From Acidimicrobiales bacterium (lineage in GTDB: Bacteria > Actinomycetota > Acidimicrobiia > Acidimicrobiales > Aldehydirespiratoraceae): DNA of 64,000 bases. Location of the stretch: the NCBI GenBank assembly GCA_963422655.1, contig OY730440.1, forward strand, positions 2,930,909-2,994,908, read 5' to 3'. Made by a program: the position numbers and the translations under genes. Shown here piece by piece: positions 3,224 through 54,828 of the stretch. Position 1 is the stretch's first letter. Each line of letters opens with the position of its first letter. Below the pieces are notes generated by a model. The model searched no databases and had not been told where the DNA came from. It saw only the letters and a program-made list of their open reading frames with translations.

Positions 3224-3541
3224 TCAGTCTCGGGCGATCATCACCACATGATCGCGCTCGATTTCGCGATGGAAGCTCTCCGGCAAGCTCGTCCACTCAT
3301 GGACTTGGACCAAGATGGGGATGTTCGACCGTTCGAGTGCTTCCACCAGATCGAAGAACCCTGCGTCGGGGATGGGTTCCAGTGTCGGGCTACGTAGCAC
3401 CAAGTCCAAGTCGCTGCCCGGATGGCTTCGTCCGTTGATGCGGCTGCCATAAGCCCACACCTCCGCTCCGGGCAGATGCTTTCGTATCAGAGCTTCGATC
3501 TGGCAATGGTCGCGAAATGGCAAGTCCAGGCGTTCAGTCAT
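3224..3541 (-). CDS. MNT-type minimal nucleotidyltransferase (antitoxin partner of HEPN)
   Basis: MTERLD... with the GS(x)nDxD nucleotidyltransferase motif (YGSRINGRSHPGSDLDLVL). About 105 aa. Its ATG at 3541-3539 overlaps the HEPN stop by 8 nt. Confidence 0.8.
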   Translation of the reverse strand: MTERLDLPFRDHCQIEALIRKHLPGAEVWAYGSRINGRSHPGSDLDLVLRSPTLEPIPDAGFFDLVEALERSNIPILVQVHEWTSLPESFHREIERDHVVMIARD

Positions 3542-3986
3542 CCGACCCCTCATTGATGACCCGAGCCAACTCCTTGGAGTCGGTGATGAAGTGTGGCAGC
3601 AATTCGAGCGTTGTCTCGGCAAACCTCTCGCCGTATCGGTGAGTCGTGTTATTGCGGTTGTCCAGGTACTCGAGCCAGCGTCTGCAACTCTCGACAGAGA
3701 TCAACCCGTGTTTTGCGGCATGGCGGAATACGTCTTTGAAGGTGAGGCGGTCCGCCTGTTGGTTGCTGGCCATATAAGGCCTGAGCCGCTTTTTCAACAG
3801 GCTTCCGCCTTGCTCCAAGACCAATTCGAACTCTTTGACACAAGCAGCCCGAAAGATGTCATAGACAATGTCGTCCGCTTCACTGTCCCGATCTTTGGCA
3901 TTCTTCGCCTGATGCTGCTGCAACTGCTTGAATGCAGCATCCAAGGTTTCGATACAGCGAGTGAGGAAGTCTGTGCTGATGTACAT
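3534..3986 (-). CDS. HEPN-domain protein, HI0074 'nucleotidyltransferase substrate-binding' family (toxin)
   Basis: 150-aa all-helical ORF. It carries the Rx4H HEPN motif RNNTTH (nt 3639-3656) and family-typical FKQL / ACVKEFELVLE / FRHAAKHGLI blocks. Confidence 0.85.
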   Translation of the reverse strand: MYISTDFLTRCIETLDAAFKQLQQHQAKNAKDRDSEADDIVYDIFRAACVKEFELVLEQGGSLLKKRLRPYMASNQQADRLTFKDVFRHAAKHGLISVESCRRWLEYLDNRNNTTHRYGERFAETTLELLPHFITDSKELARVINEGSDD

Positions 3987-4060
3987 GGTCGCTTAGCCTG
4001 GAAGAGATTGTCGGCGCCCTCGGAGTTCAGGCTCGGCACCAAACCTAGCGGCCGGGTTTA

Positions 4061-5945
4061 CTACGCAGCCCAGTCTTCCGACAGGGCCTCGGCCTGTTCC
4101 AAGACGGTGAGCGTGGCTTTTTCCTGCTTGTCGGGCGGGTAGCCCTGGCGGCTCAGCACGCGCCGCACCAGCCGGCGTAGGTTGGCCCGCACGCTTTCAC
4201 GCAGAGTCCAGTCGATGGTGACGTTGTCGCGAACGGTCTCAACCAATTCACGGGCGATGGCGCGCAGCGTCTCGTCGCCCAGGATCTTCACGGCGCTGTC
4301 GTTGGTCTCCAAGGCGTCGTAGAAGGCCAGTTCCTCTTCGGAAAGACCCAGCTTCTCGCCTCTGGCATTGTACTCTCGCATGTGTCGGGCGAGCCCGATC
4401 AGCTCCTCGATAACCTTCTCTGTCTCTATCGAACGGTTCTGGTAGCGGCGAAGGGTCTGCTCCAGCATCTCGGTGAACGAGCGGGCCTGCACCACGTTCT
4501 TGCGTCGACGGGTTGCCACTTCGCCTCTGAGCAGCTTCTGCAACAGCTCCACTGCAAGGTTCGGCTGAGGCATCCCGCGAATCTCGGCGAGGAACTTATC
4601 GGAGAGGACCGAGATGTCCGGTTTGTCCAGTCCGGCAGCAGCGAATATATCCATCACGCCTTCGGGCGCAACCGCTCGGGAGATGAGCTGGCGCACCGCG
4701 TAGTCGAGTTCCTCGTCGGAGCGCACCTCGCCCGGAGCGCGCTTGATGAGCACGGATCGCACCGCTTGGAAGAAGGCCGTGTCGTCTCTGATGCGCAGCG
4801 TTTCGGGGTGGGGCACGGCCAGCGCGAAGGCCTGTGACAACTCACGGACCGAGCGCAGGCAGCGGTTCTTGCCGTCTTGATGGGCTAGGACGGGTTCCAG
4901 TGCACTTGGCAGCAGGCCCAGTCGCTGCGGGGGGGGGGTCCAAGCCGACCGGTCGAAGCCGTGGAACAGCCCGCTGCACACCTCGTATTTCTCCAGCATT
5001 ACCACCACGGCTTCACTTTGATCGATGGCCTTTTGCCCGGTGCCGCCGCTGTCGGTGTAGGTGGTCAGGGAGCGATGGCCTGCATCAAACCGTGGCCGCG
5101 CATCGGCTTGTCGACGTACATGGTGTGCAGGCAGGGAGCGTCGAAACCGGTTAGCCACATGTCGTGCACCAGCACGACGCGCAGCGGGTCGGCGTCATCG
5201 CGAAACCGTCTGGCCAGCACCTCTCGCCGGATTTGTTGCGGATATGAGGCTGCCAGGTGACCGGGTCCGAAGCGGAGCCGGTCATACCCACTTTGACGCT
5301 TCTCCGGTCGTCGCTGTCGTGGTGCCAGTCGGGGCGCAGCCTTACGAGCTGTTGGTAGAGGTCGATACAAATACGCCGACTCATACAGACAATCATCGCT
5401 TTGTCGTCGAGAGCATTGAGTCGTTGTTCGAAATGCTCCACGATGTCTCGGGCGATTAGCTCCAGCCGCTTCTCGGTGCCGACGATGGCCTCAAGTTGCG
5501 CCCATCTGGTCTTGAGCTTCTCCTTGTGCTCGATCTCTTCGCCCTCGGTGGCCTCTTCGAACTCGGGGTCGATGGTCGGTTTCTCATCCTCGTCCAAGGC
5601 CAATCTGGCGAGACGGCTTTCGTAGTAGATGGACACCGTGGCTCCGTCGTCTACGGAGCACTGTATGTCGTAAATGCTTATGTAGTCACCGAATACGGCT
5701 CGAGTGTTGGCGTCTTTCAGCTCGATGGGCGTCCCGGTGAAGCCAACGAAAGAGGCGTTGGGCAAGGCGTCGCGCATGTGCCGGGCGAAGCCGTCGATGA
5801 AGTTCAACGACGCCCAGTGGCAACCCGTTGACGAACAGCAACACGTCGGCTCGGCGTCTATTCTTATTCTCTACGACAGCGAACTGGTCGACCGCCAGCC
5901 AGTCGTGCCAGCAGGATCGTCGAAGTCGTTTCCGGTCCGCTCATA
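4061..5945 (-). pseudogene. hsdR: type I restriction enzyme R subunit (HsdR), N-terminally truncated, internally deleted and frameshifted
   Basis: Three minus-strand frames carry consecutive HsdR pieces. The first is ...[16 protein letters not shown] (nuclease-domain end, ~5830-5900), joined directly to FIDGFARHM...FVGFTGTPI (helicase motif III, ORF 5151..5807). The second is [36 protein letters not shown] (ORF 5065..5370). The third is the DUF3387-type C-terminus (ORF 4061..5158). The Walker A / DEAH region is absent. No hsdM or hsdS is present in the window. Confidence 0.85.
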
Positions 5946-6067
5946 TCCGCCGCAGCCCTATCGGCCCCCAACGACACCCAACGCAAACCGCCCAAGATAT
6001 ATTGATCGTCATATATTGATCGGGGCAGCACCCCGAACGCCTCCAGTCAGCGGGAGAAGCAATCCAA

Positions 6068-6825
6068 GTGAGCTTGAGAGAACTGTCCAACGAAGAGATC
6101 GAAGAGATGCCGATCGACCGCCTCGCAATGCAGGCGCTCCAGCATATAGGTGGTGGCAATGAAAGTATCTATAATTTTCTGTTGAACTTGCCAGAATCGT
6201 CACAACAAGGTGAGAAGAATACTCCCAGGCCTGAGGCTGCTAAGCTAGCGATCGCCGAAGCCATGAATTGGCTGATCAATAATGGGCTGCTGAGCCGCAA
6301 TAAACCTCGTGGCGATGCAGATTCGATTTTATTACACGAGCTGGTAAGGCAGCTCTCGCTGACTGCGAATCTGGCCTCCGTTCGGTGGCTGCTACCAGGC
6401 TTCTCGGGGATCGCTTACATCCGCACCTTCGAGATGCGCGGTCCTCTTTCTTGAATGGGCAATATAAAACGGCAGTGTTCGAATCCTTCAAAACAGTCGA
6501 GGCTCGAGTACGTGAGCTCGTCCAATATCAAACCAACGATTCGACTCTAGAGGGTGATATCAACGGTGTGAAATTGATGAACCACGCTTTCGGATCTGGT
6601 AGGACACTATCCTATCCAGCTCAGGAAAAAGGTAAAATAGAAGGAGCGCGTAGTCTGTTCGTAGGAGCATTCAGCATGTATCGTAACGACGCCGCCCACG
6701 CCCGCAACGAAGAAACGTTCAAGGATCCGTCTGAGGTTGCCGAGATAATCCTGTTGGCGAACTTGCTGCACCGCCACCTCGACCGGGTCGAGAACAGCAA
6801 TAAATCACTCTCTCCAGAGAGTTGA
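6068..6825 (+). pseudogene. TIGR02391 (Hypoth_Ymh)-like protein, split by a frameshift near 6380-6400
   Basis: ORF 6068..6454 and ORF 6385..6825 overlap in different frames. The second ORF carries the family-like core LHPHLRDARSSFLNGQYKTAVFESFKTVEARVRE...YRNDAAH. Together they would give a ~250-aa protein. Confidence 0.5.
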
Positions 6826-7064: not shown

Positions 7065-10000
7065 TTACTCGCCGGTTTGGCTGGCCTCGGGTTTGGTCAT
7101 TGTCGTATAGAGAGCGTCTCTCAGCCCTAGTTTTGCGGTAAGCTCCGCGAGTTGTGTACTGAGGCCTTCCGGAAGATCAAGCAAGCAGAGTTCACCAATG
7201 AGTTCCGACATATGCCGTATCGGTGAATGTGATCCAGAGGTGAACGACTGAGAGCCAGCCAGGTAGACTAGTAGTTTCACAGTTGCCTCAGGATACCTTG
7301 ACGACAGACCTTCTCCCTTCAGTCTGTAGATGATCCTATCCTCTTCTAATGGTGGTACCGGCATCTGAATAGCGAACACAACAGCCTCAGGGAATAATTC
7401 CTTCAGATGTAGCAACCAACCGAGCATTGCTTCAACTTCATGATCGTTTAACGGTGCCGGGATTCCTTGTAATCGGTTCTCCCAGTACTGCCTGAGCCAA
7501 CGACCCCACCATTCCTGCCGTCTCGTATCATCCATATTTTCAAGATGGCTACCTATATTCAAAGCGAGTGTACGTCTATCTTCTACGGCTGATTGCTCAA
7601 AGAACTTCGGGATCCATGAATCAAGTGGATCTTCTACGAGGTGGACCACCATGATCGTATAGAATTCAACGAACCGTTTGCGGACACTTGTACTATCTTG
7701 GAACAGATCCCCTATATGCTGTACGACAGCGAGAAAGGCATCTTGCAGAGCCTCTGCTATCGGGGGACTAAGATACCCGTATAGAAAACCGCTCCAGACA
7801 GCTTGACAATCAGGATTGTTGGTATCCTTGAATAAGGGAACCAAATATCTGGTGGTCCAATTCTCATCAATTGTGAACAGGAGCTCCAGATGTATCGAAA
7901 GAATAGCTTTCCCGAGTCTTCCGATATGATTAGTATTGTCAACCACTCTCGAAAATGCCCGAGAATATTCATCACCGAGAGTATCAGGTTTGGGATTCTG
8001 GTTATTGTACCACAATCTGAAACTCCCTAGCCAGAATTCAGTGAGAACCCCGGCCGAGTGTTTCAGGGCTTGGGTAAACCAATCTTGCGATTTCAGATCA
8101 TAGTCTGTTGGTGAGGATTGCTCATTCTGCTCGAAGTGATCCCACAGAGCCGTAGCTATCGGATTAGCGTCTGCTAGTAGATCGGCTGCGTAAGGCCGAC
8201 CACCATTCTTGACGAGCCTACAGAGTACATCTGCAATATGTGGAGCCTGTTCGGAGTAGAGCTCAACTTCGGCCAACCTGCCGAGTACTTTTCGGTGGTT
8301 GCTCTCGTCCAGCTCACACGACCATGCACGCATCAAGGATGGCCAGAGGTCAGAGCCCCAATGGTTCGAGTCAGCCAGCACATCTGCCAGATCGAGTCCC
8401 CATCTGAAATTTATGGTTGCTGCTTTTTCTACCTCTTGTAAAAGTTCGTTACGGGCAGGTTCGAAGTCTCTCTTACCGTATGACATCAGCTCATCGGACC
8501 ATTGGCTGGCTGGTTGCGACAGTAGTTCCTCAGCATTCCAAGGGCTTTGTAACTCTGTAGGTCCAAATTCCGCATAGTGAGTGAAATCAGGATACTTTGG
8601 TGGCTGGAAGTCCGGATATCGTTCCGAAAGGTTGTCAAGATATCGCTTGGCTAAAGCACAATCTGAGTCAGAACGGTGAAGCCAATAAAGCCAAACAAAA
8701 TGGCGATAGGCAGTGTAGCATTCCCAATTCCCATCCCCTTGTGGCCAGATATCGGAGAGGATTTTGTTGATAACAGCCTGTCGCTTTTCCGGACTGATTT
8801 CAGGATAAATGGCATATACAGAATGGAATATCTCATGCCGGGCTGGCGAGCTGTGTAATAGAATGTTCGCCAAAAGCCAGTCGATTTTTTCTTCTGAGGT
8901 CAAATCTTTACGTAATGGCAGGGTGTGCACAGCCAGCCGTTGGAGAATCGGTGCGTTCTCGCTCACAAGGCGGTCACACCAAAATGCGGCCCTGAGCGGC
9001 TGGCTCATAGCTAGGTATTCCAGGCAGTCACGGGCAGCGTCTATCAGCACGTCAACTGCTTTATGGAACTTGTTCTGCTCGTGCGGCTCGATAGCACTCC
9101 GGCCGTAGCTTGTAGTGTCCAACCTGCTATCAGTTGCCTGCCAAGTTTGGAGAGTTTGGTGCTGTACCTTTAGGTGTCGGATGGTCTTCTCGAGCAGAGG
9201 GTCAGCCACCTTTTCGAGGTTTGGCTTCAGTCCCTCTTCCCAGAGCTTGGTTATCCAAGTACTATCCTGCTTGAATCTACCGAACTTCCATTTAGCCTTT
9301 ACAGGCAATACTATACCGTTCTCGGGTACACCGAAGCCCGGTTCGAGGAGGGGTCGGCCTGTGATCATGGCGTCGAAGATCTCGAGGAGACTGTCGGTCA
9401 GTCCTACTTTGGCACAACACTCGCCTAACTGGAACAGTACACTGATATTTGGAGGTTGAGGAGACGTAGCGAGCAGTAGCGAAACCCATCTGGCAAGAGT
9501 GTGATCATCCAGTGGATGGTCCTGCTCAGACATAACCCTATCGGCTAGAACTGTCCAGAAATCTGGGTGGATCTGCATGGTTTTCCGCCCGATCAGGAGA
9601 AAGAGCATAGTTGAATGGTCACACAAGAATGTTTGAACCAGCCACAATGCTAATTGGACAGCCTGATCATTGAGTTCTCCGAAGTTCCCGGTACCGAAGA
9701 GCTTATTCAGATGGTTATTCTGCTCGAGCCATCCGATCCATTCTTGATGTTCCGCTACGTCTGTGAAGAAACGCGTTCGTGTGAGGTCGGACAGTGCGTC
9801 GTTGATGATATCTAGTGCTTCGTCATCAAGAGATGAAGGCGGTGCCTTGACGATTTCTGTTATCTCGTGTTGCCAATCTAGAATACCGCGGCTCGCATAG
9901 TTGGCAAGAGCTTTTACGCCTTGGTAAAGAGCACTATGGTCATTGTCGGACGACTTCTGGTAGAGGATCGGCTTGATTCCGAGCAACGACCACTGCTGGG

Positions 10001-10679
10001 TATCGTATGTATCGGGCATTAGCGCGAAACGCGGTTTGGTATTGTCTGTCGACAAGGCTCGTACCAAATAGGACATTACGATATCACTATGGCTGTAGCC
10101 GACGAAGAGAACAGTATAAGATTGAAACAATTCTACGAGGAAGCGGCGAGCCCACCCTTCGGTGAGATACGCCCTACCGAAGTCCGCATCTGTGAGCACC
10201 ATGTCCTCGGCACAGCCGAGAGACCCATGGACATGGACTATCCCATTGAACTTGGTTCCCAGAGGCAAAGCTGGTGCCCTGTACACTTCGGGCTCCGAGC
10301 CAAACTTCCCTTCTGCGGCTTTTTCGAACAGAGTATCGAAATTGGTGGTAACGATGCAGATTGATTTCGGTTTCGAATAGAGTCGCAGTAGATCGTGATG
10401 TAAATTGGTTGGTTGAGGATTGTTCTTCGAGAGTTCTTTTACGGCCTGGCAATGCACCTTTACCCCTTTGTGCTGGAGCCTGCTCAGAAAGTGGTCCTCT
10501 GATTCGCCAGCAGACTTCTTTTCCCCAGTACCATGCGCGATCGCCTCTGTCAAATCCTTGAAGTTAGGTAGACCCGCTGGCTGCCCCATCGAAACGCCTG
10601 CGCCGGCAAAGATGACCAACCTGTCATCACGTAGAGCATCCAGCAGTGGTCTAGGGAAGTTGATACCTGATATCTTCAT
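7065..10679 (-). CDS. 1204-aa SIR2_2-domain (sirtuin-like NADase) protein with a long Trp-rich helical C-terminal region
   Basis: N-terminal ~230 aa: LVIFAGAGVS (Rossmann), IVTTNFDTLFE (Asn113), GIVHVHGSL (His151), VLFVGYSHSD. These are the SIR2_2 hallmarks seen in defence sirtuins. No GxxxxGK[ST] P-loop occurs anywhere. Its ATG overlaps the upstream stop as ATGA (10676-10679). This is the lowest-G+C gene of the island. Confidence 0.85.
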   Translation of the reverse strand: MKISGINFPRPLLDALRDDRLVIFAGAGVSMGQPAGLPNFKDLTEAIAHGTGEKKSAGESEDHFLSRLQHKGVKVHCQAVKELSKNNPQPTNLHHDLLRLYSKPKSICIVTTNFDTLFEKAAEGKFGSEPEVYRAPALPLGTKFNGIVHVHGSLGCAEDMVLTDADFGRAYLTEGWARRFLVELFQSYTVLFVGYSHSDIVMSYLVRALSTDNTKPRFALMPDTYDTQQWSLLGIKPILYQKSSDNDHSALYQGVKALANYASRGILDWQHEITEIVKAPPSSLDDEALDIINDALSDLTRTRFFTDVAEHQEWIGWLEQNNHLNKLFGTGNFGELNDQAVQLALWLVQTFLCDHSTMLFLLIGRKTMQIHPDFWTVLADRVMSEQDHPLDDHTLARWVSLLLATSPQPPNISVLFQLGECCAKVGLTDSLLEIFDAMITGRPLLEPGFGVPENGIVLPVKAKWKFGRFKQDSTWITKLWEEGLKPNLEKVADPLLEKTIRHLKVQHQTLQTWQATDSRLDTTSYGRSAIEPHEQNKFHKAVDVLIDAARDCLEYLAMSQPLRAAFWCDRLVSENAPILQRLAVHTLPLRKDLTSEEKIDWLLANILLHSSPARHEIFHSVYAIYPEISPEKRQAVINKILSDIWPQGDGNWECYTAYRHFVWLYWLHRSDSDCALAKRYLDNLSERYPDFQPPKYPDFTHYAEFGPTELQSPWNAEELLSQPASQWSDELMSYGKRDFEPARNELLQEVEKAATINFRWGLDLADVLADSNHWGSDLWPSLMRAWSCELDESNHRKVLGRLAEVELYSEQAPHIADVLCRLVKNGGRPYAADLLADANPIATALWDHFEQNEQSSPTDYDLKSQDWFTQALKHSAGVLTEFWLGSFRLWYNNQNPKPDTLGDEYSRAFSRVVDNTNHIGRLGKAILSIHLELLFTIDENWTTRYLVPLFKDTNNPDCQAVWSGFLYGYLSPPIAEALQDAFLAVVQHIGDLFQDSTSVRKRFVEFYTIMVVHLVEDPLDSWIPKFFEQSAVEDRRTLALNIGSHLENMDDTRRQEWWGRWLRQYWENRLQGIPAPLNDHEVEAMLGWLLHLKELFPEAVVFAIQMPVPPLEEDRIIYRLKGEGLSSRYPEATVKLLVYLAGSQSFTSGSHSPIRHMSELIGELCLLDLPEGLSTQLAELTAKLGLRDALYTTMTKPEASQTGE

Positions 10680-11944
10680 CGTAGGCTGGCCGCATGGATC
10701 GTCAGCAAGAGTTCGGCATCGTCGATGAGGCGATACTCGGGCCGTTTACCGGACAATCTCTCACTGTTGTCAAGGATGATCTCCACCCCTTCGCCGCGCT
10801 TGTCCATCATGGTTCGACGGTCCGTAGTCAGCCATGGCCGGTCAGCCGGAACCCGACATTTGGCGAGCAGACTGGTAAGGACTTCGTTGCGGGTCGATTG
10901 CAGGTGAGCAAGGTTTTCGATGGTCATCGCGTTCGCAATAGCACCCGGTGAGTAGAGTTCCAAGCGATCCTCGAACATTCGCAGCCTGATCTTGGAGCCG
11001 TGGATCGAATAGTCTCTGTGCGCAACCGCGTTGACGACAGCTTCGAACACCGCCGTCATGTCGAACTGCGGTCGATCCACCCGTCCCTGCTCCTTGAAAG
11101 CTTCTACCTTCATGTTCTTCACCACGAATCGGCAAGCATCCACAATTTGGTGGTCGAGCGGCCCGACGATGTCCGCGGCGTCCAGTTGGTAGAGATCTCC
11201 GGATGCTCCGCCAGCTCTGATATCGGTGCCACGGTATGCAACAGCCTGAATGTACGCGTTGGGTAACCACTGCCGTGCATCCTCAGCGGCCATCAACACA
11301 CCAGCAACGGTTGGCCTTGATATACCGGTGTCATCGGTACTCACCATGTGGAGATTGGAAAGCAAATTCTGCAATGAATCCCCCGTACGCGAGGTTCTGA
11401 ATCGATCACAGAGATCGGGAGACAAGTTTTCCAGGCATGCTCCGGGGATGGTTTGCTCATCGAAACGGATGAAGCGAACTTGACTACGCTGCTGGAACAG
11501 CCGAGCAAGATACTCAGGAGACATGGCCCGTTTCATGCTCCCGACACGGTAAAAGTATCCACCAGGGCTTCGATGTACGAACAGGCTTCGCGGCACATCG
11601 ATCTTGACAACGGCGACATCCTCTCCCGTGGTCGCAGGCAGCCATATGAGGTCTATAACCGGGTTTATCGGAGGTGTGATGATGTCCGTACATGCCTCAC
11701 GGACGAAGCGCTCCACGATGGCGAGACTTTCAACGGGAATCCCCAGTACTTCTCGTGTATCGTCTTCCACGCCCAGCAGGCATACACCACCGCGGCTGTT
11801 GGCGAAAGCAGCTAATTCATCAGCAATGGAATCGCGATGAGGCCCACTGACTCGCCCACTCTTGAACCGGACTTCCTTCAGTTCCAGGAAAGTAGATTCC
11901 CCCAGTCGAATCTTGTCGAGCAGTTCCTTCGGGCTATCGAACAT
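10676..11944 (-). CDS. Schlafen/AlbA_2-domain + HATPase_c_4-like protein, no C-terminal HTH (422 aa)
   Basis: GESTFLELKEVRF...ELAAFANSRGGVCLLGVED (AlbA_2, PF04326-type). ...FEAVVNAVAHRDYSIHGSKIRLRMFEDRLELYSPG (HATPase_c_4-type). The start overlaps the upstream stop by 11 nt. Confidence 0.85.
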   Translation of the reverse strand: MFDSPKELLDKIRLGESTFLELKEVRFKSGRVSGPHRDSIADELAAFANSRGGVCLLGVEDDTREVLGIPVESLAIVERFVREACTDIITPPINPVIDLIWLPATTGEDVAVVKIDVPRSLFVHRSPGGYFYRVGSMKRAMSPEYLARLFQQRSQVRFIRFDEQTIPGACLENLSPDLCDRFRTSRTGDSLQNLLSNLHMVSTDDTGISRPTVAGVLMAAEDARQWLPNAYIQAVAYRGTDIRAGGASGDLYQLDAADIVGPLDHQIVDACRFVVKNMKVEAFKEQGRVDRPQFDMTAVFEAVVNAVAHRDYSIHGSKIRLRMFEDRLELYSPGAIANAMTIENLAHLQSTRNEVLTSLLAKCRVPADRPWLTTDRRTMMDKRGEGVEIILDNSERLSGKRPEYRLIDDAELLLTIHAASLR

Positions 11945-14789
11945 GCGGCAGCTTGTGTCCCAGCCGTCGGTAACGGCGTTCGAATGCTTCGTGCCCGCCT
12001 TCCATGACCCGGCAGATTTCTTCGCGCATGGCTTCTTCCTGTAGACACCCAGACTGAACTACCCGGCACTGGCCGTCGACGAAATCCAGCGCATGCAACA
12101 TCTCCGCATCCCCGTTGACCACCACATTGGGGTTGTGTGTCACGACGATGATCTGTCGCTTGAGTTTGTTCTCTCGGATCTGTCGCACGACCAAATCGTA
12201 GATCAGATGATTGTCGAGATCGTCCTCCGGTTGATCCAGCACCAGCGGCTCCTTGCCGTATGTGAGCAGAAATGCCAGCATCGCCGCCGACCGCTGCCCT
12301 GCCGATGCTTGGGAGATGGGCTGAAAATCGGTGCCATCGCCCCCGCGGCTGTACTCCACTCGTAACCCGTCTTCGGGGAACCAAGTCCATACCTTGTCGA
12401 GGAAACCTGGCTGCTCATCGAATTTACGTTTCAGGTAATTGTTGAAATGTCCGCCAAAACTACCGCGCCCTGAACAGGCAGCCTCAATGCGGTGCTTGAG
12501 CTGATCGATGCGCTGTTCAATTGTAGTACTTCGTTGCCCTGTCTCGGAGGGTATGCCATCCAGAAGATCGGCTATGGCACCTTCTGGTGCCGCACCATCC
12601 TGATTGGTGAGGATATCGTTTTGGAATCGATCGTCGGTGACATCGAGTATCTCGCGCAGCGAACGCTCTATAGTCTGAGGATCGTCTCCATAGGATCGGA
12701 TTTGGATCTGCACGAAGTCGTTCTGATCCAAGGTCTGGGTCAGGAAGGCTTCCCGAGCCTTACTGATCGATCTACGGGCTTCCAGGACTTTCTTCAACTG
12801 TGACTGCGACTGCCTTTCTAGCCGATCACGCTCTCGCTGCAACGAATCCAGTTCCTTTATCTCACTGTCCAGGCGTTGGCGGTCCTGCACCAGACGTCCG
12901 TATTCGCTCGGGTCGGTCACGCCTTCTTCTCTCACTGCGCTGACCAATTCCGCGTAATCCTCGGTGGCTTTGTCGATAGCAGCCTGCCAGTCGCTTCGGG
13001 TCAATTCTGCCCGTTGTGCTTCTATGATATCACGCAGACGCTGGGCACAACGTCGTAGGTCATCAGCGGTACTCTGCAAGGCTGACGCCAGCGTATCCAT
13101 AGCCGATATTGCATCCTGATCTTCCTTCGAACCCGTATTGAACAGACCGTCAGGGATGTCCTCTGGTTGCAACGCCTGGGCCGCGTTTTCGACACGCTTT
13201 GCCAACTTGTCGACAGCACCGAATTGTCGGTCCACCTCCCGTTTCTGGCGGCTACGATCCTGATAACTTTTTAGGATTGCCGCGTGTCGCGCTTCTTCAA
13301 ATCGCGCCAATTTGCGTTCGGCGTCCGCCAACTCGACCGCGAGGGTATGCCGACGATCGAGTCTTCCGTCCAGTTCTCGCACCCGTGCCCGCAAAGTTTC
13401 GAACCCGCGCCGAGCTTCGCCGAGTGCCTCTCGGCGGACTGCTGTGGCCGCCGCCTCGTCGATCACCTGCAATAGTGCATCCGGATCGTCACCGGACAAC
13501 TCTACGATCTGGCCCTGGCTGAAAATGCGAATCGGAAAGCGTTCGGGCGTGATGATCTGACTTTGAGACGGGTGCCAAACCCCGTCGCGCTCTTCCTCTA
13601 TCCCCTCGTTGTTGCCGGTTCGAGACCAGTGCACACGATGCTTGACGCCGTCGCGTATTATCGTCCAGACGATTTTTGTTGATTCCTGGATGCCGCCGGT
13701 ATCCATACGATTCTTGGGGACACGATTGAAGCCCTCGAATGTCAGACGCGGGCCGCTTCGATCATTCAGGTGGCCCAACTCGTTGTCACGTCGCGACACC
13801 AGTCGTAGCGCGTGAACAATTGTGGATTTACCGGTACCGCGTCCGCCCACCACAGCGTTGAGCCAGGGGCTGAACTCGATTATGGCTGGTTGGCCATGGC
13901 CCATGTACCGTGCGTCGGCGATTTCGACCGCTTCGATGAAGTGCTCCGGCAGCTCGAACGGGTTGAAAGCATCGGGATCGTCGCTGCGCCGGATCGAAAA
14001 CCCCTGGCCGTCCAGTAGTGCCAACCTCAACCCTGCCAGTGATGGAGGGTTGGCCATTTTCACCCAGGAGTAACGAGAGCCAGGAGAACGACTACTGATT
14101 GATTCTCTGGGGTGATGCGAATCGGAACCGAGAACTTCGGCCCATGCCAGCTTCCTCTTGTGGTATACGTCCGGTTTATCTCTGCCGGTATCGACCACCT
14201 CGATCGCGAACAGACCTTCATGATCCAGTATTGGCGCTAGTTTATTGCCGGATAATTGCCAAGCGCCTGACGGGCCGTCCACATGAGCAAGAACAGTAAC
14301 ATATCCGTTCTCACTTATAGCTTGTAGTACCTCGATGGGAGATGCATCGGCTGCATAGTCACTCGATCCTGAGTCGCCTCGATACCCCACTGCCCCCAGC
14401 AGTGCATCGATGTCGGCGGTTCCTTTGTCTATATCTAATACAGCAAGGATGTGAATGTTGCCGTTAGCAGTGATTTCTACACCAGGGAACAGGTGCAACT
14501 GTCGATAGCCATCAGGGCGCTCATGGTCCAAATCATCAAGTGCTTGTTTGAGAGGGTCGATCCACTCTCCGGTGTTGTGATCTGTCACTGCTACGCAGTC
14601 CACACCGGCGCGCATGAATCCGAGTAACCAATCCCGGGGGGTGATCTGACGCAACGCGGCTTGCGCAGGTCCTTTACCGTAATCCATGGATGCAGGCGTG
14701 TGCGTGTGGAAATCGAATTTCCACCACCTTGCACCAGGATAAGACCAGCGCTGGTCTGGGTTTGAAATCTCTGGCTGGGCACTATTCAT
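11934..14789 (-). CDS. PHP-domain phosphoesterase fused to an SMC/Rad50/SbcC-like ABC ATPase (951 aa)
   Basis: PHP motifs: FDFHTHTPAS (H28/H30), VAVTDHN, LAHVDGP, LGSDSHHP. Walker A GGRGTGKST (aa 315-323, nt ~13821-13847). A Glu/Arg/Leu-rich coiled-coil region spans ~aa 430-700. ABC signature SAGQRS and Walker B LVLDQPEDDLD follow, then VVTHNPN. A GGAGGTGG SD lies 6 nt upstream of the ATG. Confidence 0.85.
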   Translation of the reverse strand: MNSAQPEISNPDQRWSYPGARWWKFDFHTHTPASMDYGKGPAQAALRQITPRDWLLGFMRAGVDCVAVTDHNTGEWIDPLKQALDDLDHERPDGYRQLHLFPGVEITANGNIHILAVLDIDKGTADIDALLGAVGYRGDSGSSDYAADASPIEVLQAISENGYVTVLAHVDGPSGAWQLSGNKLAPILDHEGLFAIEVVDTGRDKPDVYHKRKLAWAEVLGSDSHHPRESISSRSPGSRYSWVKMANPPSLAGLRLALLDGQGFSIRRSDDPDAFNPFELPEHFIEAVEIADARYMGHGQPAIIEFSPWLNAVVGGRGTGKSTIVHALRLVSRRDNELGHLNDRSGPRLTFEGFNRVPKNRMDTGGIQESTKIVWTIIRDGVKHRVHWSRTGNNEGIEEERDGVWHPSQSQIITPERFPIRIFSQGQIVELSGDDPDALLQVIDEAAATAVRREALGEARRGFETLRARVRELDGRLDRRHTLAVELADAERKLARFEEARHAAILKSYQDRSRQKREVDRQFGAVDKLAKRVENAAQALQPEDIPDGLFNTGSKEDQDAISAMDTLASALQSTADDLRRCAQRLRDIIEAQRAELTRSDWQAAIDKATEDYAELVSAVREEGVTDPSEYGRLVQDRQRLDSEIKELDSLQRERDRLERQSQSQLKKVLEARRSISKAREAFLTQTLDQNDFVQIQIRSYGDDPQTIERSLREILDVTDDRFQNDILTNQDGAAPEGAIADLLDGIPSETGQRSTTIEQRIDQLKHRIEAACSGRGSFGGHFNNYLKRKFDEQPGFLDKVWTWFPEDGLRVEYSRGGDGTDFQPISQASAGQRSAAMLAFLLTYGKEPLVLDQPEDDLDNHLIYDLVVRQIRENKLKRQIIVVTHNPNVVVNGDAEMLHALDFVDGQCRVVQSGCLQEEAMREEICRVMEGGHEAFERRYRRLGHKLPHVR

Positions 14790-14828
14790 ACGGCCACCTC
14801 CACCTACTGTATGTCTATTCCTGTAAGC

Positions 14829-16583
14829 TCATTTCCCTGCTATACGGCTGTATTCCAAGAGCACCGACTGGCCCATGACGTTCATGATTCGAACCGTTGC
14901 CTCCATTCCGTTGGCGTCAGTGACGCTCAACTCCTCCCCGAAGATGAAGTTGACAGGCTGCGGCACGCCTGCGTTGATGGTGATATTGGATGCATAGAGA
15001 TAAGTCCTGCCGAACTCATCTCGAATGGGATTTAGTCGTCCGGTCAAGCCCGGAATGCTACCGGTTGCTTCGGGGAAGATTACCGAGCCGCCTTCGGGTC
15101 GAGTATTCAGATTGAGAGTGAGCGATCTTCGTGACGGAACCCACCCGAGCTCCAGTTGGGCCGCGAAGCCTTTGGCGGCCGCGAATACCGTCATCGGCAG
15201 ATGGGCAACGTGCAGATCGACGACGGCCTCTCCATTGTCGTTCGTGGTCGCGCGTTTCCATGTCTTGTTCGGAAACAGTGTCAACACGTCCACATCGGCC
15301 AACGGCTCGCTGCCGCTGTGTACAGTGATAACGGCGTTTGTTGGTGTGGATTCCAACGACGCGGCTGGAACCGCGAGACAGAGTGCGGTTCCGTCTATGA
15401 GTCGAAAGTCGGGAAGTGTGCCGCATAGCTCCCAAGTCTCTCGCTGGATGATAGGGACCCCGTCTCCCCGTCGCTCCATGAAGAAGTGTCTTCCACTCGT
15501 TCCTTCGATGCCCACAACGCTTACCCTGCCCAGAACCGAAGTCAGTACTTCGTTACGTGTCGATTGCCGATCGCCCATACTTTCGATCGTCAGGTTGTTG
15601 GGAAGTGGGCCAGGAGAGCAAAGCTCGAGCCGATTCTCGAACATCGAGAGCCTGATCCTGCTGCCTCGAATCGAGTAGTCACGGTGAACGACGGCGTTGA
15701 CCAGCGCCTCGAACAGGACCTTTTTGCTGTACTGGGGGATATCTCGGCGCGCCGGATTCTTATGCGCTGCAATGCTCATGTTGCGCACGGCGAAAGCCAG
15801 AGCGTCCGTAATCTGCCTGTTGATCGGCCCGCCGATGATTTGTGTATCCAACTGCCCGGATGCCTTGTCTACACCCCGGTAGCGGGTTGCGATAATGCAG
15901 GCGTTGGGGAGCCATCGTTCGGGTGAGTTACTGCACAGCAGCACACCCGCGACGGTGGCCCGCGTCACGTCTTTCACGTCGGGTGCCAGCAACCCCATCT
16001 TCTCCAGCGCCAGTTCCGGATCGGCGGCGCTCTCAGCGCTGAGTAGAGGTCTCCACAGGGCCTCGTCGAGCGTCCCGAACCCTGTCTCGGGCACGGGCTG
16101 CTTGTCGAACCAGAGAAAGCGCGCCTGGCCTCGCCTCTGCGCCAAGCGCAGCCGTTCGTCACCGGCTATTTTTCGCTTGGTACTACCCACCCGGATGTAG
16201 CTACCGCCGGGACTGTCGTGCGGTGCGTGTCCCTCGGGGACTTCCACCAGCAGAAATGACTTACCTTCGGTTATCTCCTTGCGAAATATATTGACCCTGA
16301 TCAAGGGATTTACAAGGTTGGTGCATACTTCTGATATAAGGCGTTCCACTTCGTCCATCTGCGGGCGGGACAGGCCCTGAACATCACCTGCGTCGGTGAT
16401 GCCGCACAGCAGCACGCCGCCGTTGGTGTTGGCAAAGGCGGCGATTTCGTCCGCCCAATCCTCACGCTGAGGGCTTTTGGGACGATTGCCGACGAATACG
16501 ATTTCTTTGAATTCCCAGTTGCTGTCTTCGCCCAATCGAAGTTGGCGCCTGACTGCTTCGTCGCTGTACGGCATTGCTGCCAT
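14829..16583 (-). CDS. Schlafen/AlbA_2-domain + HATPase_c_4-like protein with a ~170-aa beta-rich C-terminal domain instead of an HTH (584 aa)
   Basis: GEDSNWEFKEIVF...EIAAFANTNGGVLLCGITD. FEALVNAVVHRDYSIRGSRIRLSMFENRLELCSPG. The C-terminus (aa ~415-584) has alternating hydrophobic/polar beta-like segments and no recognisable HTH. An alternative start is Met4 (16574), which has AGGA upstream. Confidence 0.85.
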   Translation of the reverse strand: MAAMPYSDEAVRRQLRLGEDSNWEFKEIVFVGNRPKSPQREDWADEIAAFANTNGGVLLCGITDAGDVQGLSRPQMDEVERLISEVCTNLVNPLIRVNIFRKEITEGKSFLLVEVPEGHAPHDSPGGSYIRVGSTKRKIAGDERLRLAQRRGQARFLWFDKQPVPETGFGTLDEALWRPLLSAESAADPELALEKMGLLAPDVKDVTRATVAGVLLCSNSPERWLPNACIIATRYRGVDKASGQLDTQIIGGPINRQITDALAFAVRNMSIAAHKNPARRDIPQYSKKVLFEALVNAVVHRDYSIRGSRIRLSMFENRLELCSPGPLPNNLTIESMGDRQSTRNEVLTSVLGRVSVVGIEGTSGRHFFMERRGDGVPIIQRETWELCGTLPDFRLIDGTALCLAVPAASLESTPTNAVITVHSGSEPLADVDVLTLFPNKTWKRATTNDNGEAVVDLHVAHLPMTVFAAAKGFAAQLELGWVPSRRSLTLNLNTRPEGGSVIFPEATGSIPGLTGRLNPIRDEFGRTYLYASNITINAGVPQPVNFIFGEELSVTDANGMEATVRIMNVMGQSVLLEYSRIAGK

Positions 16584-25182: not shown

Positions 25183-28100
25183 ATGCGTAGAGTTATACGT
25201 CATTGTCTCATACCAGTGTCTGCGGGTCTAGTGGTGGGTTTGCTGGCTGCCGTTGTTGCGGGGGGGGGGGGGGGGATAGCTGCTCTGTCGACTCAGCCCA
25301 AGGCGCAGACGCCTGTAGTTAACATTCCAGCTCCCGTATTCAGGTATGACGGTGGCCCTACTGGTACTGTCTTTGACGGCTCTAAGGTAGAGAGACAAAG
25401 CCAGTCCGATGTAAATACGATCAAGGATCTGGTAGAAGGTACTATCGTTGTCTCGTTTGATGTTGATCATCCTGGATTGAGTGCTATCGTATGTGCATCT
25501 GATTCGGGTGATAAGCACAGTGAGTTTTGCTTGCAACTTGATAGCCATGGCTTATATGGTAGTTCAGCACGTGAAAATAAGAGTATTATACAGGACATTT
25601 TTATAAGGAAGTCAACCGACACCAGCCGTGTAACTGCAGTACTATCGGTCTCGCGATCTGCAGGCACGTTTCTTATGACTAGCCAGGACCTGGGTGCTAC
25701 GCAGCAGAATTTATCAGCGACTTCGTTTTTGAGTTCCGTCAGAAATATTGACAGTCTTTTGGTAGGTGCCAACCGTAATAGACGCGGGTATGAGAGGCGC
25801 ATGAATGGAACTATCTACTTTGTAGAAATTTATAGTGTGCCTTTCACTGAGCAGCAGGCTGCGGCCAAGATCAAAGAGAGCTATATATCCTTTCCTGGCA
25901 GGGTATCCTATATTCGGACTGGAGATAGAAGGTTCCAGTTCAACATCCAACCACCGATCGGGGATTTGACAGCTACTTATAGTTGGAGTTTCCCAGGAGG
26001 AGGCACATCCGCTCAACAGAGCCCGATGTGGACAGCACCGACCGACGGTTCAGATCCGTTTAAGAATTCTGTTCCAGCCAAGGTTACCGTCACGGCAACG
26101 ATATCGTCATCCGGTGTTCACCACGGCTATGGAGAGACCACAACCTTTTATATGGCACCAGATGCCAGTCATGTCAGTCAGTCGCCTTACTCTCATACTC
26201 AAGTGTTCAAGAATGGCGAAGATGGATTCAGTTGCTACCGTCTTCCAGTGATTATCCGTGCCGGTAATGGTGATCTTCTCGTTTTTGCGGAGGGACGACC
26301 GACTTGTGGGGGTGACTTCCAGAAAGGCATGGTGATTGTCATGAAACGTAGTGTTGATAATGGTATGACCTGGGGACCTTTGCAGATCATCGCAGAAAAC
26401 ATTCTTCCCAACGGTGAACAGTGGGCAGCGCAGAACCCTACTGCCGTGCTCGATATGGCTGACCCTGATCATCAGGACGGTAAAGTCGTTCTTCTCCATA
26501 CTGTGAATGAACATAACATATGGGACAATATAGCCGGCACTGGTGTTCGTCGGTTCATCACATCTTGGAGCGGTGATCATGGCTATACCTGGAACCAGTA
26601 TCAGGTTGGTTTGCCTTCTGGGACCAACGATGGGGATATTACTAACCAGGTCTTTAGACCACACGATCCTGACTACACAGCAGTTTATGACTCTACCTAC
26701 GCTGCAAATAACTATGCTTCAGACCCGGCTTGGTCTTTTGGACATCCAACGACTGGACACTCGATCCAACTCAAACATGGAAACTCTGAGACCAACGGGC
26801 GACTATTGATAACCGGTACTTATTCGGAGCCTACGAAAAACGCTGGTAAAGAAAATTTCAACTTCAAAAATTATGTCTTTTGGAGCGATGACCACGGTAG
26901 AACCTGGGAGATCGGCGGTGAGGTTGACTCGACTACTTACAATATGAACGAGGCAATTACGGTAGAACTTGAGAATGGTGATCTGCTCATTAACTCTCGT
27001 GCATATGAGGGACCCTCAGCTAAAGATAGAGTAGAGAGGGTACTAGCGCTTGCATCTTTTGATGACGATGGGAAAGTCAGTTTTAGTAAACCTCGACTAG
27101 AGCCTGTGCTGACAACGCGGGCCACTGCAGTCGGTATGGCTCGTATGACTACTAGTGATCAGGCTGTTTTCGGGGGCGAGAGCAGGATCGCTTACACCGG
27201 CCCTAATGATACGGCTAGCAGTCGACGCAAGAATATGTCCTTCTGGATGTCAAAGGATGAGAGTAAGACTTGGGATGCATACGGGTCAATACCTAAGCTT
27301 TTGACCAAAGGCCATTCTGGGTACAGCGATGTCGTAGCGTTGCCGGATGCTCGGGTGGGGATCATCTATGAAGGAAGATTGACAACAGGTAAGTTTGATG
27401 AAGAGGGTGGTGGGTTCTTATTTCTTTCTGCGTCTCTTCATTGGTTGTCTGATGGTGTTGATCAGCGGGCGCTCATTCGCCATGACGCGTCCGAGGCGGT
27501 CTTCGACGGGTCTTCGGGTGTTGATCTCTCAGGGTCGGTTGGCGATGTCAACGATATGGCGGAAGGGTCGGTGGTGGTGTCGTTCAAGACCGCTGAGATC
27601 AACGCTGCTCAGGTTTTGTTTTCGGGTTCGGATTCTGGTGACGCCGACAGCGTGTGGTCGTTGGCTCAAACCGCAGACGGGCGTTTCGGAGTGTATGCCC
27701 GTAATGACGGCACCGACGTGAACGTCACGGCTTTCGACCGGGATCTGGTGACCGATGGTCTGTGGCATCGCATGGCGGTGACGGTCGGACCCGAAGGCAC
27801 CGAAATCTACGTGGACGGCCAGCACGTCGCCCACGGAGAATCGACCGGCTTCTTCGGCGATGTCGACGACCTCGACACCATGCACCTGGGAGGCGTCGTC
27901 ACCTCTGGCGGGACGGCGAGGTTCTGGAACGGTTCGATCGGTACCTTGGAGATCTTCGACGGGGTTCTCACCGTAGAACAAGCAGTATCAGCCACCCAAC
28001 CCGCAGCCATGCCGGTAGCAGCCTTCCATGTCGACCGGAACCTCACCGACTCCAACGCGATCACGCTAAGTGACGAACCCGGCGGAAACGAGCTCGTCGA

Positions 28101-28599
28101 AAACTATTTGCCGCAATGGGTCTGCAATGAGCTGGCCGCCTCTTGGGCAGTCGGCGCCACTTTCACAGCCCCCGACTCGGTAACCGGCCAAGGCCGGGTA
28201 TTTCACAGCCGCGACGCCTTGTCGACCGCCTCGCTGATGCTGGGAATCTGGGACACCGGCGACGGTAGCCGAATCGGCCTTCGGTACGACGGGCCGGTCG
28301 CCTCGGAATGGGATCTGGCCGTGCCGTACGACGAATACAGCGGGAAGAAAGTATCGATGATCGCGGTGCTGGGCCCAGTCAACTCCTACCTGATCATCAA
28401 CGGCGAAACCGTACACACCGAGCCCACTCCCGTACCCGAAGGCCCACCAGTCTGGCACCCTGCCAACACCACCATCGGAACCACCAACACCGACCACACC
28501 CTCAACACCAACCTCGAATCGGTAGCCATCTGGAAAGGCATCGTCCCCTCCACCCAACTCGCCCAATCACTCACCCTCGCCCACAACATCACCCGATAA
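25183..28599 (+). CDS. membrane-anchored/secreted LamG - PKD-like - GH33 exo-alpha-sialidase - LamG - LamG multidomain protein (1138 aa)
   Basis: GGAGGAG SD. N-terminal TM/signal anchor. RIP-type motif (FSCYRLPVIIRAGNGDLLVFAEGRP). Asp-boxes (SVDNGMTW, SGDHGYTW, SDDHGRTW). ConA/LamG-like blocks (EGTIVVSF...LYGS...IYFVEIY; GSVVVSFKT...WHRMAV...IYVDG). Confidence 0.85.
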   Translation: MRRVIRHCLIPVSAGLVVGLLAAVVAGGGGGIAALSTQPKAQTPVVNIPAPVFRYDGGPTGTVFDGSKVERQSQSDVNTIKDLVEGTIVVSFDVDHPGLSAIVCASDSGDKHSEFCLQLDSHGLYGSSARENKSIIQDIFIRKSTDTSRVTAVLSVSRSAGTFLMTSQDLGATQQNLSATSFLSSVRNIDSLLVGANRNRRGYERRMNGTIYFVEIYSVPFTEQQAAAKIKESYISFPGRVSYIRTGDRRFQFNIQPPIGDLTATYSWSFPGGGTSAQQSPMWTAPTDGSDPFKNSVPAKVTVTATISSSGVHHGYGETTTFYMAPDASHVSQSPYSHTQVFKNGEDGFSCYRLPVIIRAGNGDLLVFAEGRPTCGGDFQKGMVIVMKRSVDNGMTWGPLQIIAENILPNGEQWAAQNPTAVLDMADPDHQDGKVVLLHTVNEHNIWDNIAGTGVRRFITSWSGDHGYTWNQYQVGLPSGTNDGDITNQVFRPHDPDYTAVYDSTYAANNYASDPAWSFGHPTTGHSIQLKHGNSETNGRLLITGTYSEPTKNAGKENFNFKNYVFWSDDHGRTWEIGGEVDSTTYNMNEAITVELENGDLLINSRAYEGPSAKDRVERVLALASFDDDGKVSFSKPRLEPVLTTRATAVGMARMTTSDQAVFGGESRIAYTGPNDTASSRRKNMSFWMSKDESKTWDAYGSIPKLLTKGHSGYSDVVALPDARVGIIYEGRLTTGKFDEEGGGFLFLSASLHWLSDGVDQRALIRHDASEAVFDGSSGVDLSGSVGDVNDMAEGSVVVSFKTAEINAAQVLFSGSDSGDADSVWSLAQTADGRFGVYARNDGTDVNVTAFDRDLVTDGLWHRMAVTVGPEGTEIYVDGQHVAHGESTGFFGDVDDLDTMHLGGVVTSGGTARFWNGSIGTLEIFDGVLTVEQAVSATQPAAMPVAAFHVDRNLTDSNAITLSDEPGGNELVENYLPQWVCNELAASWAVGATFTAPDSVTGQGRVFHSRDALSTASLMLGIWDTGDGSRIGLRYDGPVASEWDLAVPYDEYSGKKVSMIAVLGPVNSYLIINGETVHTEPTPVPEGPPVWHPANTTIGTTNTDHTLNTNLESVAIWKGIVPSTQLAQSLTLAHNITR
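25260..25275 (+). repeat. G16 homopolymer inside the sialidase-1 signal-anchor coding region
   Basis: Counted directly: g at 25260 followed by 15 g (25261-25275). It encodes A-GGGGG-I and is in frame as given. Confidence 0.95.
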
Positions 28600-51076: not shown

Positions 51077-51199
51077 TCGCCAGTGGTCTACGTGGTAACA
51101 GTGAATAGGTTGGTAATCTCCGAACAATTTAGAGATACTTCTGTGAGCACTGATATCTTAAGGCGCATATAAGTATTAACCTATGAAATCGGAGTCTTG

Positions 51200-54618: not shown

Positions 54619-54697
54619 ATGATGAGTCCTTGATGTAACTCATGATGCAATGAGGCTATCTGGACCGAGCAAGGGCCCTGAGCTGGTATCTACCCGG

Positions 54698-54771: not shown

Positions 54772-54828
54772 TGACGACCGTCATGATAGCTGACCGCAAC
54801 ACTCCCGACGGCGCGAGGACTCGAGAAT

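Follow-up and report, generated by a model that had tools for sequence, protein, structure and literature searches.

A co-oriented defence block in an Acidimicrobiales genome reads as a composite that includes a recurrent TrlF–Schlatpase gene pair

In a stretch of 64,000 nucleotides (nt) from an Acidimicrobiales bacterium (GenBank assembly GCA_963422655.1, contig OY730440.1, positions 2,930,909 to 2,994,908 of the forward strand; hereafter the window, meaning this whole stretch), four genes run head to tail on the minus strand between positions 16583 and 7065. Genes 1 and 3 encode Schlatpases, proteins that join a Schlafen-type nuclease domain to a GHKL ATPase domain, while gene 2 encodes a TrlF-family, Ppl-like protein and gene 4 a divergent DSR1-type sirtuin. 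Our analysis indicates that this block is very likely composite rather than a single system, and that it probably holds three functional units, namely gene 1, genes 2 and 3 together, and gene 4, instead of one four-protein system. The TrlF gene and the gene-3-type Schlatpase gene recur as an ordered pair across distant bacterial groups, and relatives of genes 1 and 4 were found without the neighbours that they have here. An initial annotation, made from the sequence alone, had read the four genes as one system built of two tandem dyads, each a Schlafen/AlbA_2 protein followed by a large effector. The components, the defence setting and the probable co-transcription that it described held up; the system architecture and the sensor role given to the AlbA_2 proteins did not.

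The block is laid out as follows.

Gene 1, 16583-14829, minus strand: 584-residue Schlatpase with an all-beta C-terminal domain of ~170 residues
Spacer between genes 1 and 2, 14790-14828, minus strand: 39 nt, with a Shine-Dalgarno-like GGAGGTGG ahead of gene 2
Gene 2, 14789-11934, minus strand: 951-residue TrlF-family protein, Ppl-like PHP domain plus ABC ATPase
Gene 3, 11944-10676, minus strand: 422-residue minimal Schlatpase
Gene 4, 10679-7065, minus strand: 1204-residue divergent DSR1-type sirtuin

Genes 2 and 3 overlap by 11 nt, and genes 3 and 4 share an ATGA start/stop overlap, both read directly in the sequence. All four minus-strand open reading frames and all junctions lie exactly where the initial annotation had placed them.

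Results

Gene 2 and gene 3 belong to a recurrent, tightly coupled pair

We surveyed the neighbourhood of gene 3 by scanning one genome per species, which gave 80 loci with relatives 53-72% identical to gene 3. Sixty-one of these were informative, with the gene complete and no less than 2.9 kb of sequence upstream of it. A full-length TrlF gene lies immediately upstream in the same orientation in 42 of the 61 (69%). The taxa with the pair include Nitrospirae, Latescibacterota, Chloroflexota, Binatia and Acidobacteriota, and further Gemmatimonadota, Proteobacteria, Bacteroidota and Elusimicrobia. The junctions between the two genes are tight: 22 of the 42 pairs overlap by exactly 8 nt, and a further 17 have spacings from -11 to +3 nt. 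The distance matrices of the TrlF and gene-3 proteins are correlated (Mantel/Pearson r = 0.72, a value reached by 0 of 2000 permutations), and the two genes are thus inherited together. It is also found on a Burkholderia thailandensis plasmid, annotated there as 'TrlF family AAA-like ATPase' followed by 'ATP-binding protein' and adjoined by conjugation genes. The conserved pair, TrlF then gene 3, straddles the two dyads proposed at first, in which gene 2 was assigned to gene 1 and gene 4 to gene 3.

No such recurrence was seen for gene 3 and its downstream neighbour, as a DSR1 homologue was present in 0 of the 80 gene-3 loci. Gene-3 relatives overlap the start of unrelated next genes elsewhere, namely PglZ at three loci (L008, L011 and L016) and an AlbA_2-like gene at another (L015), so the ATGA overlap with the DSR1-type gene is no sign of a specific partnership.

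The two partners depend on each other unequally: a gene-3-type Schlatpase usually comes with TrlF, and TrlF often occurs without a Schlatpase of this kind. A gene-3 relative was found on only 1 of 474 plasmids that have a match to gene 2 (Ppl/TrlF-like). In one locus (L035, 5334-13733), a full TrlF–Schlatpase pair, its Schlatpase interrupted by an insertion of ~2.5 kb, comes after a truncated TrlF fragment and a divergent, 26% identical AlbA_2 gene.

The TrlF–Schlatpase pair goes unmentioned in the papers on Schlafen proteins, on fusions of Schlafen with prokaryotic Argonaute (SLFN-pAgo), on BREX (bacteriophage exclusion) and on embedded systems. A full-text literature search for Schlafen, PHP and phage jointly returned one unrelated paper only, and the hidden Markov model libraries tested (PADLOC 2.0 and NCBIfam) hold no model for the pair. 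The cassette is thus probably undescribed as a two-gene unit.

Gene 2 is a Ppl-like protein of the TrlF family

Gene 2 matches the PADLOC Ppl model nearly end to end (E = 2.6e-136, model positions 4-892 of 894). It passes the NCBIfam model TrlF_fam_ATP with 598 bits (cut-off 350) over positions 2-944 of 944, and fails the Ppl_antiphage equivalog model with 541 bits (cut-off 1000). Likewise, the protein is 49% identical end to end to TrlF of an E. coli IncF plasmid and ~30% identical to annotated ppl genes. Pfam recognizes AAA_21, SMC_N and AAA_15, marking an ABC/SMC-type ATPase that is split by a coiled-coil insert. The Pfam PHP model itself, PF02811, gave no match at E<0.01; the PHP domain is supported by the HxH motif at residues 28-30, by the end-to-end Ppl and TrlF models, and by weak NCBIfam matches to CehA/McbA (4e-8) and RNase RNM (4e-5). 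In the 43-sequence family of gene 2, the PHP residues H28, H30, D70, H71, H113, H169 and H225 are kept in 41-43 members, and the ATPase motifs are invariant or almost so, comprising Walker A (GGRGTGKS, 315-322, with K321), the signature residues S829, G831 and Q832, D852-Q853-P-E855, and H885 of the H-loop. The earlier description of gene 2 as a PHP domain joined to an ATPase is borne out by these models and residues.

An unusual feature of gene 2 is its Walker B motif, which reads D-Q-P-E (LDQPEDDLD, residues 852-855), with Gln853 invariant in 43 of 43 sequences. ABC ATPases usually carry the catalytic glutamate at the position of Gln853. Either E855 substitutes as the catalytic residue in TrlF, or hydrolysis is slow.

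In relation to Ppl, gene 2 shares the full layout of PHP domain, Walker A, coiled-coil insert, ABC signature and Walker B. Ppl has been described as a single gene, whereas the TrlF clade of gene 2 usually has a translationally coupled Schlatpase downstream; other TrlF genes do occur singly. Gao et al. reportedly introduced Ppl as an anti-phage protein in 2020, and Xu et al. are said to have treated its mechanism in Molecular Cell in 2026. Searched by name, TrlF led only to unrelated spectroscopy papers. For E. coli Ppl, a review describes a single-gene defence and self-contained sensor-effector that senses 3'-OH ends and nucleoside triphosphate (NTP) depletion and acts as an NTP-inhibited 3'-5' single-stranded DNA exonuclease (PMC12904381).

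On the E. coli plasmid pL37-4 (NZ_CP034592.1, 1311-8859; locus L114), genes for a DEAD/DEAH helicase and an N6 DNA methylase are followed by TrlF, which closes the co-oriented array. This IncF plasmid array suggests a further recurrent setting of TrlF without a Schlatpase.

Genes 1 and 3 carry intact Schlafen and GHKL residues

Both Schlatpases of the block contain the two expected Pfam domains above their gathering scores, in agreement with the initial annotation. Gene 1 matches SLFN_AlbA_2 (PF04326) at 3.7e-20 and HATPase_c_4 (PF13749) at 1.5e-14, and gene 3 matches them at 2.5e-15 and 6e-19, respectively. The Ex4ExK nuclease motif reads EDSNWEFK in gene 1 (residues 19-26) and ESTFLELK in gene 3 (residues 16-23). 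The GHKL pair is E292/N296 in gene 1 and E301/N305 in gene 3, equivalent in both to the E-x3-N pair E314/N318 of RzAgo. Across the 43 gene-3 relatives compared, residues E16, E21, K23, E301 and N305 never vary. Since the Schlafen nuclease and GHKL residues are intact, genes 1 and 3 look, as judged from sequence, like RNase effectors rather than the portable sensor or regulator subunits that they had been taken for.

The two proteins are paralogues, 41% identical over 411 residues (E = 5e-100), and each is only 21-25% identical to a third Schlatpase in the window, at 35587-37281, which bears a winged helix-turn-helix (wHTH) tail. The earlier statement that they are closer to each other than to this paralogue was correct, and the wHTH matches of the latter were confirmed. 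They were also rightly called free of a helix-turn-helix (HTH): gene 3 stops straight after its GHKL domain with no tail, and the tail of gene 1 is all-beta in its AlphaFold2 model. This model of residues 405-584, built from a 26-sequence alignment, contains 16 strands and zero helices, with a mean predicted local distance difference test score (pLDDT) of 84.6 and a predicted template modelling (TM) score (pTM) of 0.81. The first half of the tail resembles transthyretin-like/CarboxypepD_reg beta-sandwiches (5aq0, TM 0.77 over 85 columns; PF13620 weak). Foldseek gave only domain-level beta-sandwich matches for the tail, none at E<0.001. A cryptic HTH, which published Schlatpase tails would lead one to expect, was considered for the gene 1 tail and ruled out by the all-beta model.

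The Schlafen–GHKL module has already been named both 'pSlfn-HisKinase' and 'Schlatpase'. The pSlfn-HisKinase form is the commonest prokaryotic Schlafen architecture (34%), and among seven pSlfn systems tried as single constructs in E. coli, two of them of the HisKinase type, only the DUF262 and immunoglobulin (Ig)-like fusions protected (Taboada et al., Nat Microbiol 2026). In the published pSlfn RorSlfn5, the sensor is Ig-like and tRNA cleavage has been reported. For the Schlatpase supradomain, ATP binding by the PF13749 GHKL domain is described to drive tetramerisation, upon which the Schlafen domain cleaves tRNA; stand-alone Schlatpases form the majority architecture and occur in type I restriction-modification (R-M) operons (SLFN-pAgo preprint 2026). 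ATP-driven oligomerisation with tRNA cleavage has been shown for RzAgo and RorSlfn5, and of the Schlatpase tails with a structural annotation, >90% are reported as HTH. Compared with these proteins, genes 1 and 3 have the same supradomain, each with the Ex4ExK motif and the GHKL E/N pair. The family of gene 1 is found in type I R-M operons, as published. Gene 1 differs by its all-beta tail, and gene 3 by having no tail. Relatives of gene 3 at 53-77% identity are widespread among bacterial groups; PADLOC 2.0 gave only partial matches to pAgo-related models for this gene, and NCBIfam none.

Genes 1 and 4 have relatives outside the block's arrangement

A metagenome scan for gene 1 gave ~25 loci with full-length or near-full-length relatives, 51-69% identical with the beta tail included, and three more contexts held relatives 62-73% identical, making ~30 loci in all. 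Neither TrlF nor DSR1 lies near the gene-1 relative in any of these ~30 loci, and a gene of this type is accordingly not conserved beside a PHP-ATPase. The relatives were found between hsdM and hsdS/hsdR of type I R-M operons, in a DUF1156/DUF499-HEPN/SNF2 cluster, by an IS605 TnpB gene, or alone. Gene 1 is most likely an independent single-gene unit.

Several further observations concern this gene. Its all-beta domain (~residues 410-580) matches eight loci (L106-L113) at 52-56% identity without the Schlafen N-terminal part and therefore behaves as a separable module. At loci L164-L168, the gene-1 relative adjoins a 1064-residue BNR/Sortilin gene. The start of gene 1 in the window is ambiguous by 9 nt (16574-16583), and the protein collection lists 581 residues from an ATG three codons downstream (M4).

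Gene 4 consists of an N-terminal SIR2 domain followed by a large helical C-terminal region that ends in DUF4020 (Pfam SIR2_2, 1.1e-21; DUF4020, 1.1e-6). The Asn/His pair noticed at the outset is present as N113 (VTTNFD) and H151 (HVHG), and both catalytic residues align with E. coli Dsr1. The two proteins are collinear, with 32% identity over residues 4-287 (2e-35) and 23% over residues 870-1175 (4e-18); the middle 580 residues show no similarity at the level of BLAST. Gene 4 matches the PADLOC Dsr1 model at 1.1e-74 and scores 316 bits against the NCBIfam Dsr1 cut-off of 1400, and because it falls below this equivalog cut-off we regard it as a divergent DSR1. Like DSR1, gene 4 has the SIR2 NADase domain with N113/H151, the long helical C-terminal region with DUF4020, and single-gene relatives whose surroundings vary. 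In contrast to DSR1, it has low identity (23-32%) and a start that overlaps the gene 3 stop, an arrangement seen at no other locus examined.

The census for gene 4 covered its four closest relatives (P0122, P0124, P0126 and P0229, 47-54% identical, on five contigs) and a homologue on a Rhodococcus plasmid. An AlbA_2 neighbour was found at 0 of these 6 DSR1-like loci, nor was there a conserved neighbour of any sort; thus AlbA_2 proteins are not conserved beside SIR2/DSR1. No gene 4 relatives were found in the scanned viral contigs. The Dsr1 sensor, common to Avs7, binds the phage major capsid protein (PMC13581612), and gene 4 would therefore need no separate sensor subunit. Gene 4, too, is most likely an independent single-gene unit.

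The pair is nested in BREX loci and resembles PARIS in layout

Downstream of gene-3 relatives, a recurrent 780-residue gene was identified as PglZ (PADLOC E = 0). At least 12 loci show the order PglX – TrlF – Schlatpase – PglZ, which places the cassette within type 1 BREX. At one locus (L057), a gene-3 relative stands between PglX and PglZ without TrlF, and for ~30 of the 42 TrlF–gene 3 pairs the flanks that were retrieved contain neither PglX nor PglZ. A BREX locus from Bryobacterales (L015, 767-15680) contains a gene-1 relative (62%), PglX, TrlF, a gene-3 relative, two AlbA_2-like open reading frames and PglZ, and thus several Schlatpase paralogues inside one BREX system.

A 2026 survey in Nucleic Acids Research (NAR) lists Schlafen RNases with a histidine kinase domain and a wHTH tail among BREX-linked 'backup' effectors in at least 1017 taxa. 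It also describes PARIS (phage anti-restriction-induced system; AriA/AriB) as a BREX-locus backup against Ocr-type inhibitors. The term 'PHP' is absent from its main text. Our cassette resembles PARIS in that an ABC ATPase gene is followed by a tightly coupled nuclease gene with tRNA-cutting relatives, often between pglX and pglZ. It differs in both components. The TrlF ATPase is SMC/Rad50-like and has its own PHP nuclease, whereas AriA is OLD-type; the gene 3 nuclease is Schlafen-GHKL, whereas AriB is DUF4435/Toprim. There is no Toprim protein among the four block genes, and gene 2 matches the PADLOC AriA model only weakly and in part (1.2e-11, C-terminal ATPase lobe). The resemblance is one of layout and possible working logic, not of membership.

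The block lies in a probably horizontally acquired island

The block is a co-oriented defence island, most likely acquired horizontally. The G+C content of its genes is 0.50-0.58, against ~0.66 in the host and neighbouring housekeeping genes. Genes 2 and 3 (0.560 and 0.556) are the most alike pair within the block (dinucleotide delta* 33), and gene 4 stands apart from genes 1-3 (G+C 0.497, dinucleotide delta* 97-113). No terminator-like site was found at the block junctions, the spacer between genes 1 and 2 included, and the four genes are probably co-transcribed. Promoter and terminator scans gave counts no higher than expected from shuffled sequence, with a sigma-70 consensus that may not suit a high-G+C host. 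Neither island-border repeats nor a tRNA gene was convincing near 6.9-16.6 kb.

Within the window the block is bordered by an AMP-ligase gene at one side and by Ymh/hsdR debris at the other; no BREX genes adjoin it, and no R-M system there is intact. The debris lies just downstream:

Defence-island debris, 3224-6825: HEPN/MNT pair, two hsdR fragments and a Hypoth_Ymh gene
NTP_transf_2 gene of the HEPN/MNT pair, 3224-3622, minus strand
NTase_sub_bind/HepT gene of the HEPN/MNT pair, 3534-3986, minus strand
hsdR fragment, T1RH-like_C, 4061-5158, minus strand: PADLOC REase_I match
hsdR fragment, SWI2_SNF2, 5151-5807, minus strand: PADLOC REase_I match
Hypoth_Ymh/TIGR02391 gene, 6385-6825, plus strand

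With these genes located and the G+C values given above, the low G+C and the defence-island context of type I R-M debris and a HEPN-MNT pair, as first described, are confirmed.

Elsewhere in the window, the third Schlatpase paralogue, the one with the wHTH tail (35587-37281, minus strand), has a transfer-messenger RNA (tmRNA) gene as its immediate neighbour (37440-37827, minus strand). As ssrA is a classical integration site of genomic islands, this paralogue may occupy a second island. Two paralogous BNR/sialidase plus LamG genes of ~1130 residues lie at 25183-28599 and 51197-54592 (G+C 0.53 and 0.47), the latter abutting a tRNA-Lys/His/Arg cluster (54696-55126).

Discussion

Gene structures, family assignments, catalytic residues and conservation of adjacency are all observed directly, and they leave four readings of the block to be compared. 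In the reading that we prefer, the block holds three units, and TrlF and gene 3 are, to judge from their sequences and neighbourhoods, probably functionally coupled. A single system, whether of two [Schlafen-GHKL partner][effector] dyads with AlbA_2 proteins as sensors or regulators or of one four-protein complex, is highly improbable. In its favour are the co-orientation, the junctions of 39, -11 and -4 nt without a terminator-like site and the paralogy of genes 1 and 3. Yet neither dyad recurs, given the absence of TrlF from the gene-1 loci, of DSR1 from the gene-3 loci and of AlbA_2 genes from the DSR1-like loci, and these neighbourhood censuses of genes 1, 3 and 4 largely rule out a four-gene system of two dyads. 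Moreover, both Ppl and Dsr1 are known to work from one gene and to do their own sensing, nuclease and ATPase residues are intact in genes 1 and 3, and gene 4 is unlike genes 1-3 in composition. Nor can the four genes be called an undescribed system, with gene 2 already modelled as Ppl/TrlF and gene 4 as Dsr1. That existing models might assign genes 2 and 4, and that the proposed adjacencies might not be conserved elsewhere, had been foreseen in the initial annotation, and both are what we found. Improbable as well is the reading of the cassette not as an independent system but as an accessory 'backup' of BREX or type I R-M, which fires only once a phage anti-restriction protein has inhibited the host's BREX or R-M, with the copy in the window a remnant of a decayed R-M locus. 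The pairs between pglX and pglZ at the BREX loci speak for it, together with the sensing of Ocr by PARIS in BREX loci, the listing of Schlafen RNases as BREX-linked backups, the decayed hsdR fragments near the block and the gene-1 relatives inside type I R-M operons. However, most pairs lack PglX and PglZ in their fetched flanks, the Burkholderia plasmid copy stands beside conjugation genes, and the block in the window has no adjoining BREX genes or intact R-M.

A serious rival, which we consider unlikely, is that four autonomous single-gene systems stand head to tail and that the TrlF/gene-3 adjacency reflects co-transfer without functional coupling. TrlF alone on many plasmids and contigs of mobile genetic elements (MGEs), gene-3 relatives without TrlF, including the one between PglX and PglZ, the predominance of stand-alone Schlatpases in the literature and the ability of Ppl to work singly in E. 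coli all favour it. Against this stand the 69% adjacency over distant groups with order and orientation constant, the mostly overlapping junctions (the same 8 nt in 22 of 42), the correlated divergence, and the lack of E. coli protection by two HisKinase-type pSlfn alone, which is compatible with a missing partner. Several points count against the three-unit reading with its coupled pair. Gene-3 relatives occur without TrlF in 19 of the 61 informative loci, and the closest of all (77% identical; L081 and L082, 10001-11260) stand alone. TrlF is found alone on plasmids of E. coli, P. aeruginosa, K. pneumoniae and S. epidermidis, and at ~37 TrlF/Ppl-like loci on viral/MGE contigs there was no Schlafen-type neighbour, in a TrlF-centred sample of plasmids and viral/MGE contigs that is small and biased toward mobile elements. 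Because TrlF and gene-3 relatives also occur separately, they could be autonomous genes that merely travel together. Here, tight coupling extends over all four genes, with a 39-nt gap, an 11-nt overlap and a 4-nt overlap, and a lineage-specific functional link among them is possible. Finally, we found no paper on the TrlF–Schlatpase pair, but an account of it may exist in Krishnan et al. 2020 (NAR 48:10045) or Xu et al. 2026 (Mol Cell 86:180). The stand-alone gene-3 relatives at L081 and L082 lie between fatty-acid synthesis and housekeeping genes and adjoin a PF13941 (MutL-type) gene; defence genes are absent from their surroundings.

In the three-unit reading, we infer the biochemical activities, as well as a physical interaction between TrlF and gene 3, from homology and analogy. 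Gene 1 would be a stand-alone Schlatpase that senses through its beta-sandwich tail, much as RorSlfn5 does through its Ig-like sensor. In the second unit, homology to E. coli Ppl suggests that TrlF would be an NTP-gated 3'-5' single-stranded DNA exonuclease responding to 3'-OH ends made by the phage, and homology to SLFN-pAgo and pSlfn that the Schlatpase would assemble on ATP binding into a tRNA-cleaving oligomer. Both may act jointly, as a DNA-directed arm and an abortive, translation-shutoff arm. Their connection could take two forms: the ABC ATPase might hold and license the RNase, as AriA does AriB in PARIS, or the same fall of the nucleotide pool might release both proteins. Gene order, coupling and BREX nesting parallel ariA-ariB; the most likely reading would be a licensing or hand-off between the TrlF ABC ATPase and the Schlatpase RNase. 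In the third unit, the C-terminal sensor of gene 4 itself would recognise a phage structural protein and thereby trigger NAD+ hydrolysis.

A more specific proposal, which we advance tentatively and hold to be doubtful, is that TrlF–Schlatpase is a PARIS-like two-component immune module, new to the literature, and a dedicated BREX guard. Here the SMC-like ABC ATPase, which has a PHP nuclease of its own, would restrain the Schlafen tRNase and free or license it on DNA ends, nucleotide depletion or an anti-restriction protein. If this were true, a translation-shutoff arm would be added to a DNA-degrading arm, and the repeated nesting between pglX and pglZ would mark the cassette as a guard dedicated to BREX.

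Ppl/TrlF, DSR1 and Schlafen-GHKL proteins are each known as defence components, which makes the island as such unremarkable. What is new is the TrlF–Schlatpase cassette, which can be seen as a Ppl-like system with two genes or, just as well, as a Schlatpase with a partner. The block also gives a caution for annotation, in that tight overlaps in a defence island do not alone define a system. If the two proteins cooperate, Ppl-type nucleases would have a two-gene form, and the cassette would represent a second PARIS-like design of ABC ATPase plus tRNA nuclease. The commonest yet least understood class of prokaryotic Schlafen proteins would, in its minimal stand-alone form, also gain a function and a partner.

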